Made by a program: the position numbers and the translations under genes
The notes under the pieces: generated by a model
Databases searched by the model: none
What the model was told of the DNA's origin: nothing
The model's input: only the letters and a program-made list of their open reading frames with translations
Source of the DNA: an uncultured Candidatus Saccharibacteria bacterium
Lineage (GTDB): Bacteria; Patescibacteriota; Minisyncoccia; 2-02-FULL-40-12; GWA2-44-9
DNA: 24,170 nt
Reading direction: 5' to 3'
Assembly (NCBI GenBank): GCA_964502945.1
Contig: CAZCYM010000001.1
Coordinates: forward strand, 8,071-32,240
Shown: positions 2,793-18,768 of the stretch, piece by piece
Layout of the letters: each line of letters begins with the position of its first letter
Position numbering within the stretch: position 1 is the stretch's first letter

Positions 2793-3524
2793 ATGCCATC
2801 AAAATTAGGAACTCTAAAAATTTCCCGGAGTGGATTGAAATTATTTCTTGATTGTCCAAGATGCTTTTGGCTTGATTTGCATCACAAGATAAAACGTCCA
2901 CCCGGCTATCCATATACTCTTTCGGCGGCAGTAGATTATTTAGTTAAGCGGGAATTTGATAAATTCAGAGTTGAGGGCAAATTGCCTCCAGTTTTGAAAA
3001 ATGCCGGCATCAAGGATGCCAAGCTTTATGCTGGTGATAATCTTGCAGAATGGAGAAATAATTTTAAAGGTATCGCTTATTATGACGAATCTCAAAATGC
3101 CATATTGTATGGAGCGGTTGATGACGTTTTAGAATTTAAAGACGGTTCTTTGGGGGTTATTGATTATAAATCCTCCGGTTCAAAAGAAGTAACCATTTAC
3201 GAAGATTACCAAAAGCAGATGGACGTATATAATTATATTCTTCAGCAGTTAGGTCACGAAACATATCCCGAAGCATTCTTTGTTTTTTATCAGGTTATTA
3301 AAGAAGGGGAGGATGGCTTTCAAAACGCTCTTAAATTTAAAGAACAAGTCAAAGCAGTAAGGGTTAATAAAGATTGGGTTGGTCCGGCTTTTGAGGCAGC
3401 GGTTGAATTGGCAAGACAAGAATCACCTCCCCGCGAAAGTGGAAATGTCCGAAAACATTGCGACCATTGCCATTATGTTGAGATGGCAAGTCAACATAAA
3501 TTAACCCCAGACTTAAATATATAA
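2793..3524 (+). CDS. PD-(D/E)XK RecB-family nuclease (Cas4/AddB-like, Cys-containing)
   Basis: N-terminal LFLDCPRCFW, motif II GAVDD, motif III IDYKS, RecB motif QMDVY, C-terminal CDHC. Confidence 0.85.
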   Translation: MPSKLGTLKISRSGLKLFLDCPRCFWLDLHHKIKRPPGYPYTLSAAVDYLVKREFDKFRVEGKLPPVLKNAGIKDAKLYAGDNLAEWRNNFKGIAYYDESQNAILYGAVDDVLEFKDGSLGVIDYKSSGSKEVTIYEDYQKQMDVYNYILQQLGHETYPEAFFVFYQVIKEGEDGFQNALKFKEQVKAVRVNKDWVGPAFEAAVELARQESPPRESGNVRKHCDHCHYVEMASQHKLTPDLNI

Positions 3525-3552
3525 AATACTTCAGTAGTTAGTTTTAGTAAAT

Positions 3553-3602
3553 ATATATTGTCTTATAATCCTTTCGTACGAAAGGATTATAAGACAATAT
3601 AT
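3553..3602. repeat. Perfect 50-bp palindrome with no loop, 7 nt upstream of the PaaX/Cas2-like ATG
   Basis: ATATATTGTCTTATAATCCTTTCGT|ACGAAAGGATTATAAGACAATATAT; all 25 pairs checked by hand. Confidence 0.97.
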
Positions 3603-3609
3603 TCATAAT

Positions 3610-4143
3610 ATGCGAGGAGATTTTGTAATAAAATTTTTAGAAGGATTAAAAGATACCGTTGTTGATATTGGAACTGCCTGGAGTCATATTTCGTATAAAG
3701 GAGTTAGGTATAGCGATTTTAATATATACGGATACAACGATAGAAAGAAATATGTCGGATTTAAAAACTTGGAACATAGAGGATTTATTAAAAATAGAAA
3801 TGGCGACTACTTTATCTTTACTAAAAAGGGACAGGATTGGTTACGGAGATCTTTTGTTAGATATTTTAGAATGAAAGATGGCGGTAAGTGGGATAAAAAA
3901 TGGAGGGTGGTTATTTTTGACATTCCCCAGGAGCTACATAGAGAGAGGATAAAGTTCAGGCAACAATTAAAATCTCTAGGCTTCTCTTCGTTACAAAAAA
4001 GTGTTCTTGTTTTTCCATATCCTTGCGAGGAAGAGGTGGGAGATGCATGTAATAAATTAGGGGTTAGCGATTATGTGGACATTCTTATCGCTGAATCGCC
4101 GGGTTCTAAAGAAAAAGAATTGGTTAAAATCTTCGGATTGTAA
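3610..4143 (+). CDS. PaaX-like protein: partial winged HTH plus C-terminal Cas2-like (ferredoxin-fold) domain
   Basis: wHTH-like KNLEHRGFIK...YFIFTKKG, then WDKKWRVVIFDIP...FRQQLKSLGFSSLQKSVLVFPYPC, matching the PaaX C-terminal/Cas2-like pattern. Confidence 0.8.
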   Translation: MRGDFVIKFLEGLKDTVVDIGTAWSHISYKGVRYSDFNIYGYNDRKKYVGFKNLEHRGFIKNRNGDYFIFTKKGQDWLRRSFVRYFRMKDGGKWDKKWRVVIFDIPQELHRERIKFRQQLKSLGFSSLQKSVLVFPYPCEEEVGDACNKLGVSDYVDILIAESPGSKEKELVKIFGL

Positions 4144-4145
4144 TA

Positions 4146-4195
4146 TGTGAGTGTCTCATAAATCTTTCGTACGAAAGATTTATGAGACACTCACA
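4146..4195. repeat. Perfect 50-bp palindrome with no loop, 2 nt after the PaaX/Cas2-like stop
   Basis: TGTGAGTGTCTCATAAATCTTTCGT|ACGAAAGATTTATGAGACACTCACA; all 25 pairs checked. Same core as 3553-3602. Confidence 0.97.
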
Positions 4196-4252
4196 GTCGT
4201 CCAGTTAACCAGTAGTAGTGTTGTTTTTTTAGTTTTATGATAAGATTTATTC

Positions 4253-5695
4253 ATGGCTAAACAACCAAAACTTTACGCCGAACATTTCTATAAATTTTTC
4301 CAGTGTCCCCATTGGATTTGGTACGATATTTATGCCGATGCAACCAAGAAGAAGAAAACTCCGGCCATAATGGACCTGATCTATAAAGGTAAGGTCGCCA
4401 ATGGGATAGATGTTTTAAGGGAACATAAGAAATTCGAAGAAATAAAACCCGAACTTTTCCGAGATTTAGAAGAAGCATTTTTGGCCACGCTTGAAATGAT
4501 GAAGCAGGGCAAGAACATCTATCACGGTGTTTTAATGAACGAGGATTGGGCCGGGATGCCGGATTTGCTAGAAGCAAGACCCGGCAAATCAGAACTTGGT
4601 GATTTTCACTATGTTGTGTATGATGTTCAATCATCCCTCGATCTTCGCGATGAATATAAATTTCAATTAATTTTTTACAGTTTAATTCTTGGGCGTCTTC
4701 AGGGGGTCAGACCGAAAGAGGCCTATGTCATTGATCCTCAGGGCAATGAGCGGTCTTTTAAGGTAGATGATTTTGTCGATCAATTTCATCTTACTCGGGA
4801 GCAAATAGAGAAAATATTAGACGGTGAAAAGCCAGCGCCATTTATCAAGTCAACTTGTCGTCGGACACCGTGGTATTCTCTTTGTTTTTCTGATGCCAAG
4901 GATTGTAATGACGTTTCTCTGATTTATCGTTCAAGTCAGGCCGATCAGCGACGCTTGTATGGTATTGGTATTAAAACCGTTAGCGATCTCGCTCTGGCTG
5001 ATGTGAATGATCTCCAAAATAAACTTGAGGATTGGCCGTTTGATAAGATAATCCGTTTTGTAAATCAGGCAAAAGTTTTAACGACCCAACAGCCGATCAT
5101 TCTGCGTAAGCCGAATTTTCCGGAAGTTGAAAATGAAATCTACTTCGACATAGAGTCTGATCCGACTCGGGATATTGATTATCTCTTAGGATGTTTGATA
5201 AAAAATAACAAAGACGGAATAAAATACGAATGCTTTTTAGCTCAAGATAAGAGCGAAGAAGAAAAAATATGGAAGCAGTTTTTAGATTTTTTGGCAAAAC
5301 TGGATAATTTTGTTATTTATCATTACGCTTATGCTGAAAAAATGGTTTTTGATCGTCTCGCCCTGCGCTATGGTGCCTCGACCGCACTCATTGATAAATT
5401 CAAAGATAACACTATTGATCTCCACCTCAAGCTGGTTGATACGGCTGTTCTGCCCTTATACTTCTACAGTTTAAAAGATGTTGCCGGATATCTTGGTTAT
5501 AAGTGGGATGATCCGGATGCTGGGGGAGCGGAATCAGTTGTCTGGTATAACGATTGGCTTGATAAAAAAGACAATTCAATCATGAAAAAAATTCTCAAAT
5601 ACAACGAAGATGATGTCCGAGCGACAATGCTTATAAAAGAGTGGTTAGAAACCCAGAAACCATCAAAGCAGAGGGAGAAGTTGGATGAGGAATAA
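4253..5695 (+). CDS. TM0106-family RecB-like nuclease with C-terminal RNase H-like (YprB-type) domain
   Basis: N-terminal FFQCPHW, GMPDLL, QLIFY; C-terminal YFDIESD, IYHYAYAE, YSLKDVAGYLGYKW, GAESVVWY, YNEDDVRAT. Confidence 0.85.
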   Translation: MAKQPKLYAEHFYKFFQCPHWIWYDIYADATKKKKTPAIMDLIYKGKVANGIDVLREHKKFEEIKPELFRDLEEAFLATLEMMKQGKNIYHGVLMNEDWAGMPDLLEARPGKSELGDFHYVVYDVQSSLDLRDEYKFQLIFYSLILGRLQGVRPKEAYVIDPQGNERSFKVDDFVDQFHLTREQIEKILDGEKPAPFIKSTCRRTPWYSLCFSDAKDCNDVSLIYRSSQADQRRLYGIGIKTVSDLALADVNDLQNKLEDWPFDKIIRFVNQAKVLTTQQPIILRKPNFPEVENEIYFDIESDPTRDIDYLLGCLIKNNKDGIKYECFLAQDKSEEEKIWKQFLDFLAKLDNFVIYHYAYAEKMVFDRLALRYGASTALIDKFKDNTIDLHLKLVDTAVLPLYFYSLKDVAGYLGYKWDDPDAGGAESVVWYNDWLDKKDNSIMKKILKYNEDDVRATMLIKEWLETQKPSKQREKLDEE

Positions 5696-6341: not shown

Positions 6342-7715
6342 GTGAAAAACTCTCACCTTTTAATTTTAATTCTTATTGGGTCTGTTTTTTTGTTTGCTTT
6401 CGTTTGGCCGCAGGCGATTAATAAAGGCGTAGACAACCTGCGCCAATTTTCAATTTTCAATTTTCAATTTTCAAAGTTACCCCATATTCCGGAAAAACAG
6501 TTTTTACTAGGCTTGGATCTTCTGGGCGGTGTCCATTTATTATACGAAGCCGATTTATCAAAAGTTGAGGCAGAAAATAAAAGTGATGCCATGCAGGGTA
6601 TTAGAGATGTTATCGAGAGGAGAGTTAACTTTTTTGGCGTCTCAGAGCCGTTAGTTCAGGTTTCAGGCGATGACCGTCTCATTGTTGAGCTTGCCGGTAT
6701 AAGTGATGTAAATCAGGCAATTCAGATGATAGGCGAAACTCCGTTTTTGGAGTTTAAGGAAGAAGTCTCAAATTATGAGGAATAGTTAGAAGAATTTCAG
6801 ACAATCGTCGATTCAGGCAAAGCAACTGAACTAGACAGTTTTGCTCTCAATGATAAACTCTTTATTGCTACAGGTTTAACCGGAAGTCAAGTCAAGCGAG
6901 CGGTGGTTTCTTTTGAGTCTCAAACTGGCCAGCCCCAAGTCAGTCTTGAACTAAACGATGAGGGAGCTAGACTATTTGGCGAAATAACCAAGAGAAATGT
7001 TGGAAAACGAGTAGCAATATATCTAGATGGTTTACCGATTAGTGTTCCGGTGGTTCAAACGGAAATATCTAATGGCCAAGCGGTTATTACCGGTGGATTC
7101 AATCCTCAAGAAGCGAAGCTCCTTGCTACACGATTAAATTCCGGAGCATTGCCGGTGCCGATCAGTATAATATCCCAACAAACGATAGGGGCATCTCTGG
7201 GTGCTGAATCTTTGCGTGCCAGTCTGAATGCGGGTCTTTGGAGCTTAGTCTTCGTGGCCCTATTTATGGTGGTTTTCTATCGTTTTCCTGGGGTGATATC
7301 TCTGGTTGCACTTTTCATATATACGCTCGGAGTGCTTGCTATCTATAAAATTTTTCCGGTAACTTTGACTCTTGCTGGCATCGCCGGTTTTATTTTATCG
7401 CTAGGCATGGCACTCGATGCAAATGTGCTGATATTTGCTCGTATGCGCGAGGAACTGGGTGCTGGGAAGAACCTTATGATATCCGTGACGGATGGATTTC
7501 GCCGGTCTTGGCCTTCAATACGCGATAGTCATGTCACCGCACTAATCAGTTCGGTAATATTGTATTCGTTCACTACCTCTATTGTAAAAGGCTTTGCTTT
7601 GACCCTAGGCATCGGGTTGGTTTTGAGTTTGCTGACATCACTAGTCGTGACGCGTCTTTTCCTGACGATGCTTGTTCAGACACGCTTTGGGCGCCATCGC
7701 TGGCTGTTTAAATAA
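6342..7715 (+). pseudogene. secD: Protein translocase subunit SecD interrupted by one in-frame TAG at 6783-6785 (nonsense allele, readthrough or sequence error)
   Basis: LGLDLLGGVHLLYEAD, IERRVNFFGVSEP, LIVELAG and IGETPFLEF precede the stop. The same frame continues LEEFQ...ATGLTGSQVKRA into LDG...P, LNSGALPVP, GIAGFILSLGMALDANVLIFARMREE and GFALTLGIG. Confidence 0.85.
6444..6474 (+). repeat. Tandem heptamer (CAATTTT)x4 plus CAA inside the secD coding sequence
   Basis: Read directly from the sequence; encodes QFSIFNFQFSK between TM1 and the conserved LGLDL motif. Confidence 0.95.
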
Positions 7716-9829: not shown

Positions 9830-9944
9830 AGTTAAAAGGTAAAAGTTAAAAGGTAAAAGTTCAAGTTAAAGTTCAAAATTGATTAAATTAATTTTAAGAT
9901 TTTGAATTGTAATTTTGCATTTTGATTTTTTAATTTTCAATTTC
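9828..9944. repeat. 7-nt-period AT-rich array (A-rich arm, then T-rich arm)
   Basis: AAAAGTT/AAAAGGT units followed by AATTTTG/AATTTTC-like units. Confidence 0.8.
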
Positions 9945-13900: not shown

Positions 13901-13957
13901 CCTACTTTAAAAATGTATTATTCTTATATTAAACTCTTGATTTTTTAATTTTAAACT

Positions 13958-16047: not shown

Positions 16048-16253
16048 TTCTGCTCCTCTTTATCAAATAACTAAATCTTGTACTTTAAGATAACATAGTT
16101 TTCTGGTAAATAAAAGGCAATGCTGTTTCGTGAAACCGGTCGGAATAATGCAAACTAGAACTTCGGACTCTATCATAGTAATATTCTAAACTTGATTTCT
16201 GGTGTATCTTTGTTAAGATGATAGAATTATTATAACTAACCGGTACCTTGTGT

Positions 16254-16326
<73 letters not shown>

Positions 16327-16348
16327 CACAGGGCATCGAACATCTAAG

Positions 16349-17179
16349 GTGACTAAGCAGGCATTTAAGCAAAAGTGCATTGAACTTAGAAACAAGAGCT
16401 TTACTCTTGGTGAGATTGCATCAACTCTAAATAGACCAAAAACAACGGTCTATTTTCACGTAAGAAACATACCCAAAACAAAAAAGTTATTGGAAAAAAT
16501 AAAGATTATCCGCATTAATTCCATAAAAGGGAAGGGTCCTCAAAGAGGCAAAAGTCTACTGGGCTATAAATATAAAAAATTTAATCAATGGACTCCACTT
16601 CTTGTTAACCTAGTAGCTCATATGCTTTTTGATGGAGCGATAAAGAGAGAAGGCGTTTTGTATTATAATCGAAGCTCGGCACTTCTTAACAATTTTAAAA
16701 ATAAGATGACAACCATATATGATGGCAGTCCTAGGATTTACAAAAATGACAATGGCGTAGCGAGACTCGCGTATCATAATGTAGAGCTTGGGACTTTTTT
16801 TCTAAAAAAATCATCCGATTTACTAGACGATATAAAAAAATTACCGATTAATTTTCAGCTAGAGTTTTTGAAGGCCTTTTTTGATGATGAGGGGTCAGTA
16901 GATTTTAGGGGTATGAAGCGGCGAATTAAAGGATATCAGCACAATACAAGGATACTTCACTTAATTTACAAGCTTCTCGGTAATTTTAAAATTAACTCAT
17001 TCGTTGATGATCGTTTCAACGAGATTATGGTCACAAGAAAAGAAAATATAAAAAAATTTGCCGCGAAAATCAACTTTTCCAAAGGAGTGAGAATTAACGG
17101 CAAACGCTCAAATAGTATCTGGAAGAAATCTTTAGAAAAAAGAAAAATTCTTGCGGATCTTCTTACTTCTTACCAGTAA
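16349..17179 (+). CDS. HTH plus double-motif LAGLIDADG homing-endonuclease-like protein
   Basis: N-terminal HTH (FTLGEIASTLNRPKTTVYFHV); LAGLIDADG-like helices LVAHMLFDGAI and FLKAFFDDEGSV; starts 22 nt after the tRNA. Confidence 0.8.
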   Translation: MTKQAFKQKCIELRNKSFTLGEIASTLNRPKTTVYFHVRNIPKTKKLLEKIKIIRINSIKGKGPQRGKSLLGYKYKKFNQWTPLLVNLVAHMLFDGAIKREGVLYYNRSSALLNNFKNKMTTIYDGSPRIYKNDNGVARLAYHNVELGTFFLKKSSDLLDDIKKLPINFQLEFLKAFFDDEGSVDFRGMKRRIKGYQHNTRILHLIYKLLGNFKINSFVDDRFNEIMVTRKENIKKFAAKINFSKGVRINGKRSNSIWKKSLEKRKILADLLTSYQ

Positions 17180-18664: not shown

Positions 18665-18768
18665 GAATTAATTTCTAATTTACAATTTACAATTTCCAAT
18701 AAATTTACAATGAATCAATGAAACATTGAAAATTCAATGAAAATTGAGAATTGATAATTGAAAATTTC
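18665..18768. repeat. 7-nt-period inverted heptamer array between the RMD1 gene and ddl
   Basis: Left arm AATTTCT/AATTTAC/AATTTAC/AATTTCC; right arm ATTGAAA/ATTGAGA/ATTGATA/ATTGAAA. Confidence 0.8.

Follow-up and report, generated by a model that had tools for sequence, protein, structure and literature searches.

The stretch of DNA described here (the window) comprises 24,170 nt of contig CAZCYM010000001.1 (GenBank assembly GCA_964502945.1, positions 8,071 to 32,240 of the forward strand), from an uncultured Candidatus Saccharibacteria bacterium. It contains a short PaaX-like gene, encoding a protein of 177 amino acids (aa; 3610-4143, + strand), that lies between two perfect palindromes of 50 bp each: P1 upstream (3553-3602) and P2 downstream (4146-4195), neither of which is assigned to a strand. 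P1 stops 7 nt short of the ATG at 3610, P2 starts 2 nt past the TAA (4141-4143), and the two centres are 593 bp apart. The arms of P1, 25 nt each, are 100% complementary, with a spacer of 0 nt. The core of P1 (3559-3596) reads TGTCTTATAA-TC-CTTTCGT/ACGAAAG-GA-TTATAAGACA, and that of P2 (4152-4189) reads TGTCTCATAA-AT-CTTTCGT/ACGAAAG-AT-TTATGAGACA, the solidus marking the centre of symmetry; what they have in common is a 38-bp core of the form TGTCTYATAA-WY-CTTTCGT/ACGAAAG-RW-TTATRAGACA. The two cores differ at three positions per arm, and every one of these differences is mirrored on the opposite arm. The first-pass annotation, which reported two perfect, loop-less, related palindromes bracketing the gene, was correct as to their positions, symmetry, spacing and mirrored differences. 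The window shows in unusually perfect form a site-gene-site architecture that is found family-wide, and we argue that the two sites are probably operators for the protein encoded between them.

Within the window, the half-site pattern is restricted to P1 and P2: four matches are observed where 0.04 are expected by chance, and none of 100 shuffles reached four. Folded as single-stranded DNA, P1 and P2 give -19.7 and -23.6 kcal/mol, respectively (z ~ -12), each as a hairpin with a 23-bp stem and a 4-nt loop. The shuffle test, the folding z-scores and the recurrence of the sites together rule out a chance origin. An assembly artefact is ruled out as well, because the same site family recurs beside the orthologous genes of loci L001, L081, L083, L084 and L088, which come from independent assemblies. 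The left arm of P1 includes a TATAAT hexamer (3564-3569, + strand) that, read from the sequence, resembles a -10 element and may belong to a promoter. It occurs in the same place in L081 and L083, is missing from L001 and from the left arm in L084, and was not called in a promoter scan of the window.

The protein has two parts. Its C-terminal half matches the Pfam family PF20803 (PaaX_M, the ‘central Cas2-like domain’) over residues 93-169, with an expect value (E) of 2.2e-22 and a score of 79.4 bits (cut-off 24). It also matches the cas2 model TIGR01573 over residues 98-132, at 25.0 bits, just over the cut-off of 24.5. Further toward the N-terminus, residues 46-87 match HTH_45 weakly (E 0.023). 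The equivalog TIGR02277 reaches 32.6 bits, far under its cut-off of 264.55, and the protein stops at residue 177, without the C-terminal helical ligand-binding domain of PaaX; for these reasons we call it PaaX-like, and not PaaX. An AlphaFold2 (AF2) model (pLDDT 78) has an N-terminal half of helix and wing, with the order helix-strand-strand-helix at residues 44-89, and a C-terminal half of the order beta-alpha-beta-beta-alpha-beta. The top fold matches in the PDB are PaaX itself (8a39, full length, E 6.5e-4) and Rv0674, followed by winged helix-turn-helix (wHTH) regulators of the IdeR/DtxR kind, and Cas2 structures fit the C-terminal half with TM-scores of 0.5-0.65 (target-normalised). The predicted N-terminal wHTH is assigned with moderate confidence, because residues 17-44 are poorly modelled. 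In a profile of 39 homologues, the motif VVIFDIP...QKSVF aligns with IVFFDLP...QKSVY of Cas2, a stretch that is absent from Escherichia coli PaaX (8a39). Nine residues are the same in all 81 members (D95, W98, R99, F103, D104, P106, R113, Q129 and S131), of which D104 is the counterpart of the Cas2 FDLP aspartate at the end of beta1. Across the family alignment the Cas2-like half is conserved, whereas the N-terminal wHTH half varies greatly.

Relatives of the protein number in the hundreds; they occur in Yanofskybacteria, Paceibacterota and other Patescibacteria, and one genome often has several. At least 574 loci of the PaaX-like family are confirmed, and the closest non-self protein among the matches is 83% identical. 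Many public records name members ‘CRISPR-associated endonuclease Cas2’, although no CRISPR surroundings were seen at the loci examined, and one record has ‘repressor in the phenylacetic acid catabolism’. From this family we compared 80 homologous genome loci with the window. The 160-bp flank upstream of each gene was aligned with the 160-bp flank downstream, with cross-locus pairs as controls and no requirement for palindromy. By this measure 67 of the 80 loci have a shared, quasi-palindromic site on both flanks (median 37 bp) that scores above the 99th percentile of the cross-locus controls. The earlier suggestion that homologues would prove to be flanked by palindromic sites at both ends is thus borne out. 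Strict palindromes, with zero or short loops, are no more than 200 bp from the gene ends at 45 loci, of which 17 have them at both ends. Their density is 1.82/kb beside the gene versus 0.099/kb elsewhere, an 18-fold difference, and the strict palindromes of the background are mostly GC-rich terminators.

The sites keep close to the gene. The upstream site ends a median of 36 nt before the start codon, and the downstream site starts a median of 12 nt past the stop codon (interquartile range 1-22), with 13 downstream sites reaching into that codon or into the coding sequence. The neighbour downstream runs in the same direction (+) at 31 loci and is convergent (-) at 30, and all 58 of 58 loci have the downstream site closer to the gene's own stop than to this neighbour. 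Since it is always nearest its own stop, whatever the strand of the neighbour, the downstream site belongs to the regulator gene and not to the neighbour, and so it cannot generally be a promoter operator of the next gene.

Sites and proteins diverge in step, as the first-pass annotation had suspected that they might. The upstream and downstream sites of one locus match each other with a mean score of 48, whereas sites of different loci score 28 for proteins of 60% identity or more, 20 for 50-60% and 13 for less than 40%, and paralogues of one genome have differing sites with unrelated arms. While the arms vary, the central hexamer is conserved, most often as CGATCG (17), CGTACG (12), CATATG (7) or CAATTG (4). 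Among 11 orthologous sites, the outer boxes TGTCTY and RAGACA are invariant, in the geometry TGTCTY-N24-26-RAGACA, and the outermost 6 bp are paired in the window alone. The perfect length of 50 bp, to which attention was first drawn, is therefore true of the window, but the conserved unit is the core of 38-40 bp.

Nor is perfection conserved within the core. The P1 counterpart has three arm mismatches in L084 and one central mismatch in L081, the upstream site of L088 has several, and in L002 and L003 the boxes TGTCTCATAA...TTATGAGACA stand at unchanged spacing around an asymmetric centre of 18 bp that is conserved in sequence. Judged from these comparisons, perfect 50-bp symmetry is most likely a lineage-specific state and not a requirement, and the mechanism first read from loop-less perfection is not supported. 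At variable core positions of the 11 sites both arms are usually altered together, with no one-sided core changes, and mismatches have no sense-strand excess of G:T (18 vs 16). Two-armed changes without a G:T excess point to symmetry at the level of DNA and not of an RNA hairpin. Quasipalindrome template-switch mutation turns imperfect repeats into perfect ones (PMC7202029), and would account for the mirrored differences without invoking function.

The module occupies a variable slot. On its left is a gene for a Cas4-like PD-(D/E)XK nuclease (2793-3524, + strand; PF12705, E 4.7e-11), and on its right a gene for a RecB-like nuclease of the TM0106 family (4253-5695, + strand; TIGR03491, 329 bits). 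The latter is preceded by a leader (4231-4252, + strand) that reads TTTTATGATAAGATTTATT ahead of the ATG both in the window and in L086, which has no cassette, and TTTTATGGTAAGATTTATT, with one substitution, in L088, which has one; as it is kept with or without the cassette, it sets the right-hand limit of the variable segment. Homology breaks at the stop codon of the Cas4-like gene, and in L086 and L088 is taken up again ~20 nt before the TM0106 ATG. The Cas4-like gene is beside the slot in L001, L004, L005, L007, L078, L086, L088-L090 and L092-L095. Ten loci were anchored on TM0106 homologues. Among relatives with a TM0106 78-92% identical to that of the window, the slot holds a PaaX-like cassette in L088 only; a PI3/PI4-kinase-like gene and a 91-aa open reading frame (ORF) in L086, L087 and L090; a reversed gene of ~224 aa in L089 and L094; other small genes in L092, L093 and L095; and nothing but a 50-bp spacer on the contig carrying the protein match P0144. 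L088, the sole locus with the gene, is also the only one of the 10 anchored loci with site motifs, and no solo site was found in the cassette-less slots of L086, L087 and L089-L095. As had been anticipated, the slot is empty or otherwise filled in syntenic relatives, and the site-gene-site unit is an accessory module, a discrete, exchangeable cassette that is gained or lost as a whole, together with both sites.

The same slot in L078 contains a non-orthologous PaaX-like cassette (37% identical, with different sites), and sites of the window's type adjoin RNase H in L002 and L003. Identities of the cassette and of TM0106 go together (83 vs 90%, 69 vs 72% and 54 vs 68%; for the 83%, L088 was paired with match P0002 by inference and the identity was not measured). 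Where the slot has the cassette, its divergence thus tracks TM0106, as would fit inheritance and frequent loss. Genes without sites are exchanged in the slot as well, and its variability is therefore not specific to the cassette.

The interval of the window at 3524-4253 constitutes a hypervariable slot in Yanofskybacteria-like genomes (compare L086 3847-5000, L089 4187-5000, L090 and L092-L095). It places a Cas2-like gene between two Cas4-like nuclease genes (2793-5695), for TM0106 also scores on Cas4 models, and this three-gene order, nuclease-PaaX-like-nuclease, recurs in several lineages. In L083 and L084 the left nuclease is a paralogue of 33% identity, encoded on the opposite strand. An ORF of ~196 aa without a Pfam match separates the cassette from TM0106 in L081, L083 and L084, as does a different, reversed gene of 363 aa in L005. 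The window was considered as an empty site for the paralogue at L021, and the intervening gene content is too different for comparison.

A metagenome scan for the window core returned five loci, of which three are orthologous cassettes and the other two (L082 and L085) represent a single orphan locus. The orphan site, TTGTCTCATAACCCTTTCGTACGAAAGGGTTATGAGACAA, is a perfect palindrome of 40 bp (L082 5849-5890, L085 9562-9603) on contigs without a PaaX-like gene. For ~10-15 nt on each side its flanks resemble those of P2 in L083. With both flanks shared with that P2, it looks like a copied P2 region and not like the scar of recombination between P1 and P2. L082 and L085 are 99.8% identical, but 35 bp from the site L085 has a segment of 800 bp, including a 200-aa ORF with a methyltransferase-like GxGxG motif, where L082 has one of 144 bp with a small ORF.

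We favour the view that P1 and P2 are paired, cognate operators, predicted as such from sequence, of the protein encoded between them, and that gene and sites form a self-contained module; we regard this as probable, though well short of certain. The operator of E. coli PaaX is TGATTC(N27)GAATCA, 39 bp long, and PaaX represses its own promoter, Px (PMC9493321). The box spacing of the window family (6 + N24-26 + 6) matches that of this operator, and a long site is accordingly what one would expect of the family. The earlier argument that ordinary operators have no need of such length is contradicted by the PaaX operator itself.

How such a module might work can be outlined. The fast-evolving N-terminal winged helix would read the outer boxes, TGTCTY...RAGACA, and the Cas2-like domain would serve for dimerisation and be placed over the central hexamer (CGTACG in the window; CGATCG, CATATG and others at other loci). 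A variable wHTH with variable arms, and a conserved Cas2-like half with a conserved hexamer, would fit such a dimer, with the wHTHs on the boxes and the core over the dyad. L002 and L003, in which boxes and spacing are kept around an asymmetric centre, argue for recognition of the duplex and not of a hairpin. Binding to the upstream site would occlude the promoter or the 5' end, and so bring about negative autoregulation, as PaaX does at Px. For the downstream site there is a precedent in LacI: looped LacI at O3 blocks transcription of lacI, and the truncated product is SsrA-tagged (PMC3711431). Because the downstream site is not generally an operator of the next gene, and given this precedent, we propose that the bound downstream site would block the elongating RNA polymerase, or join the upstream site in a loop of ~0.6 kb, or both. 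Lying ~12 nt past the stop codon, it would stall the polymerase at or just before that codon. Downstream binding might then add to the feedback and, in compact genomes, shield the gene from transcription or read-through from either neighbour. The perfect symmetry would be expected of a symmetric dimer's site combined with quasipalindrome template-switch mutation.

The sites of L054 are of interest in this connection. Three copies of one site (3320-3354, 4803-4837 and 5428-5462) bound the PaaX-like gene and a divergent isochorismatase-cupin-nitroreductase operon, with the third, identical copy at the far end of the operon. This suggests that the sites mark both ends of regulated units, and the operon looks like a typical target of a local repressor.

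Several observations weigh against paired operators. Alignment of six orthologous upstream regions disclosed no convincing -35/-10 pair. Spacer insertions and deletions of 1 nt are mirrored on both arms, which protein contacts alone need not bring about. The orphan site lies 9 nt past the stop codon of a small ORF, between convergent genes, where no promoter is expected. Other copies of the locus-specific sites number three in 540 kb of flanking DNA, the third site of L054 being one of them, and a regulator of little but itself would be odd. The Cas2 catalytic-type residues, kept in all 81 members and missing from E. coli PaaX, hint in their conservation at a role beyond dimerisation. GC content at third codon positions (GC3) in the PaaX-like gene is 10.3 points under that of the other ORFs of the locus (p 1e-13; 81 loci), where other small ORFs deviate by only -0.2 points; the gene has the lowest GC3 of its locus in 61% of loci, and in the window the figures are 0.315 vs 0.360. 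Finally, the phylogeny of the cassette conflicts with synteny, L002 and L003 being 62-63% identical yet beside RNase H, and the syntenic cassette of L078 only 37%.

Some of these observations can be read in another way, which we think unlikely, in which the unit is a DNA-processing or mobile cassette. The Cas2-like domain would be a nuclease that nicks or cuts the central hexamers, the sites would act as recombination sites in the manner of lox or dif, and the unit would be excised, inserted or exchanged, possibly via hairpin or cruciform intermediates. Six of the invariant residues (D95, R99, D104, R113, Q129 and S131) are consistent with this, as are the want of a D104 counterpart in E. coli PaaX, the conservation of the hexamer across paralogues whose arms diverge, and the near-confinement of the sites to the gene's own flanks, from which they are lost along with the gene. 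So, too, are a slot that is empty or otherwise filled in close relatives, the non-orthologous cassette in the L078 slot, the second context of the same cassette type in L002/L003, the GC3 deficit and the presence of several paralogues per genome. However, the conserved aspartate is retained in Cas2 proteins as well, and Cas2 catalysis is dispensable for the known role of Cas2 in adaptation. Neither the protein nor the window has a known recombinase or transposase fold, and the scanned ORFs of the window include no protelomerase, transposase or recombinase domain. Target-site duplications are absent, the flanks outside the sites scoring 13.8 vs 12.5 in cross-locus controls; a CAGTAGT/TAGTTTTA repeat in the window, examined as a candidate duplication, is not significant. 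Site orientation is inconsistent (direct in 24 loci, inverted in 14, ambiguous in 29), no identical or near-identical copies of the cassette were found in different places, and no family member was found in phage genomes or viral contigs; matches on plasmids are only to distant Rhodococcus PaaX genes. Divergence in the slot follows TM0106, and the slot swaps genes without sites as well. Excision as hairpin-capped DNA, or movement driven by cruciforms, as the first-pass annotation envisaged, finds no backing in these results.

Known elements of the mobile and defensive kind were rejected on similar grounds. No telomere resolvase was found in the window, orthologous sites are mismatched or asymmetric, and the sites are internal to chromosomal contigs, none of which supports the view of P1 and P2 as hairpin-telomere substrates. 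An insertion sequence (IS) or miniature inverted-repeat transposable element, the IS200/IS605 group included, is discounted by the lack of a transposase, the mixed orientation, the lack of an excess of flanking direct repeats and the lack of identical copies. As to known defence systems, PADLOC gave only weak matches, to Cas2 and Cas4.

That the wHTH-Cas2-like proteins should be site-specific DNA-processing enzymes, each dimer seated on its ~38-bp site and nicking or cutting the central hexamer beneath an invariant acidic pocket of D95 and D104, we hold to be improbable. A small chance is left to it by the invariant Cas2 signature, the conserved hexamer, the near-absence of other targets, and the AT-rich composition of a patchy cassette that hops between slots. 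If it were true, the site-gene-site units would be self-recognising cassettes, excised, exchanged between hypervariable slots or used in some other DNA transaction, and here would be a Cas2-fold protein with a catalytic role on DNA outside CRISPR.

It is also improbable, and a little more so than a mobile cassette, that P1 and P2 serve mainly to control or terminate the neighbouring Cas4-like and TM0106 nuclease genes. A perfect TTGACA, resembling a -35 hexamer, directly abuts the downstream site ahead of the next gene in L081, L083 (8675-8720) and L084, and the third site of L054 bounds a divergent operon, both of which would suit a regulator of neighbours. But in relatives without the PaaX-like gene both nuclease genes are still there, as is the TM0106 leader, and there are no sites; the downstream neighbour is convergent in 30/61 loci, and the downstream site is, as noted, always closer to the regulator's own stop codon.

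Less probable still is a role in RNA, with transcribed hairpins as terminators, RNase III processing sites or mRNA stabilisers: the 23-bp stem and 4-nt loop available to each palindrome, the tie of the downstream site to the 3' end of the gene and the position of the L082 orphan just past a stop codon would accord with it, but neither P1 nor P2, with a mean GC of 36% and no T-run, is followed by a sense-strand U-tract or called as a sense-strand intrinsic terminator, terminators in these genomes are a separate class of GC-rich, A/T-flanked hairpins, compensated positions have no one-sided changes of the G-U type and no sense-strand G:T excess, the centre in L002/L003 keeps its sequence and not its pairing, and Rfam gives only sub-threshold matches to generic, miRNA-like hairpins and no known RNA family.

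Beyond the module, the window is ordinary chromosome, with genes for an acyl-CoA ligase-like (AMP-binding) protein, an M16 peptidase, SecDF, a sigma-like protein, Ddl and a class II aminoacyl-tRNA synthetase. Two ORFs ~117 bp apart, 6342-6785 (SecD_1st) and 6903-7715 (the P1 head and the C-terminal part), make up SecD, which in L095 is a single 456-aa protein; the split could reflect a frameshift or an intervening sequence, or else an error in sequencing. An AT-rich motif, (AATTTTCAA)n / TTGATTTTTTAATTTTCAA, occurs at 6445-6474, 9911-9940, 13937-13955 and 18670-18699, and may be a promoter or leader element, two of its copies being a few nt ahead of start codons (9949 and 13958). The only RNA gene found in the whole window is one copy of tRNA-Lys (UUU; 16254-16327), which is spanned by an imperfect inverted repeat (16241-16260 / 16319-16338) and followed, 22 nt on, by an ORF resembling a LAGLIDADG-type homing endonuclease (16349-17179; E 2.9e-6). 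A candidate RNase P RNA downstream of the L002 cassette was not confirmed.

A literature search on PaaX with Cas2, palindromes, Patescibacteria and the candidate phyla radiation (CPR) turned up no paper on this PaaX-like family, and an architecture with one operator at the promoter and a second fixed at the stop codon, independent of the neighbours, was not found in the searchable literature. The family is common in small genomes, and it offers dozens of ready-made predicted protein-operator pairs, each with the regulator between its two sites. The architecture suggests a general way of insulating autoregulation where genomes are compact and intergenic regions short, and so many orthogonal sites might serve as parts for synthetic biology. 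A DNA-processing role, if true, would be relevant to the question of how CRISPR adaptation came to recruit Cas2.

Among known systems, the telomere-resolution sites of protelomerases (TelN, TelK and ResT), loxP and dif resemble P1 and P2 in being long dyad sites with arms around a core, and the sites of the window are near telomere-resolution sites in size. They differ in that here there is no enzyme like a tyrosine recombinase, perfection is not conserved, the sites are inside chromosomal contigs and their orientation is inconsistent. RAYT genes and their REP sequences provide another parallel, a single gene between two short palindromic copies that co-diverge with the protein; but the window protein is not an HUH/Y1 transposase, and there is no swarm of repeats (three extra copies in 540 kb, and one orphan locus). 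With nucleases of the Cas2/VapD type, the C-terminal domain has in common the Cas2 fold and the signature of beta1-Asp, alpha1-Arg and Q-S-V-F. Here, however, the domain is fused to a wHTH and is encoded by scattered single genes, several per genome, and the genomic association of Cas2 is lacking, with no cas1, other cas gene or CRISPR array among the window ORFs scanned and the window repeats.

Closest in their logic are two repressors. LacI has an operator, O3, at the 3' end of lacI, in the position of the predicted downstream operator of the window family, and bound or looped repressor could halt the polymerase there before the mRNA is complete (PMC3711431). O3, however, exists as a by-product of the lac promoter next to it, and the promoter of lacI has no operator, whereas the window family has a dedicated pair of sites, recognised here from sequence alone, that is conserved family-wide and independent of the neighbours. 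E. coli PaaX is the nearest relative in structure. Both proteins have an N-terminal wHTH (predicted here) and a Cas2-like dimerisation domain (PF20803), 8a39 being the best fold match. Both have sites of ~38-39 bp in which inverted boxes of 6 bp are ~26-27 bp apart (binding in our case is predicted), and both have a site at the regulator's own promoter. PaaX, however, is 316 aa long and includes a phenylacetyl-CoA domain, where the window protein, at 177 aa, has no such domain and retains the FDxP aspartate of Cas2, along with other polar residues that were lost in PaaX. In the window family, moreover, the centre of the site is conserved and usually palindromic, a second site is fixed at the 3' end of the gene, and there is no linkage to paa genes.

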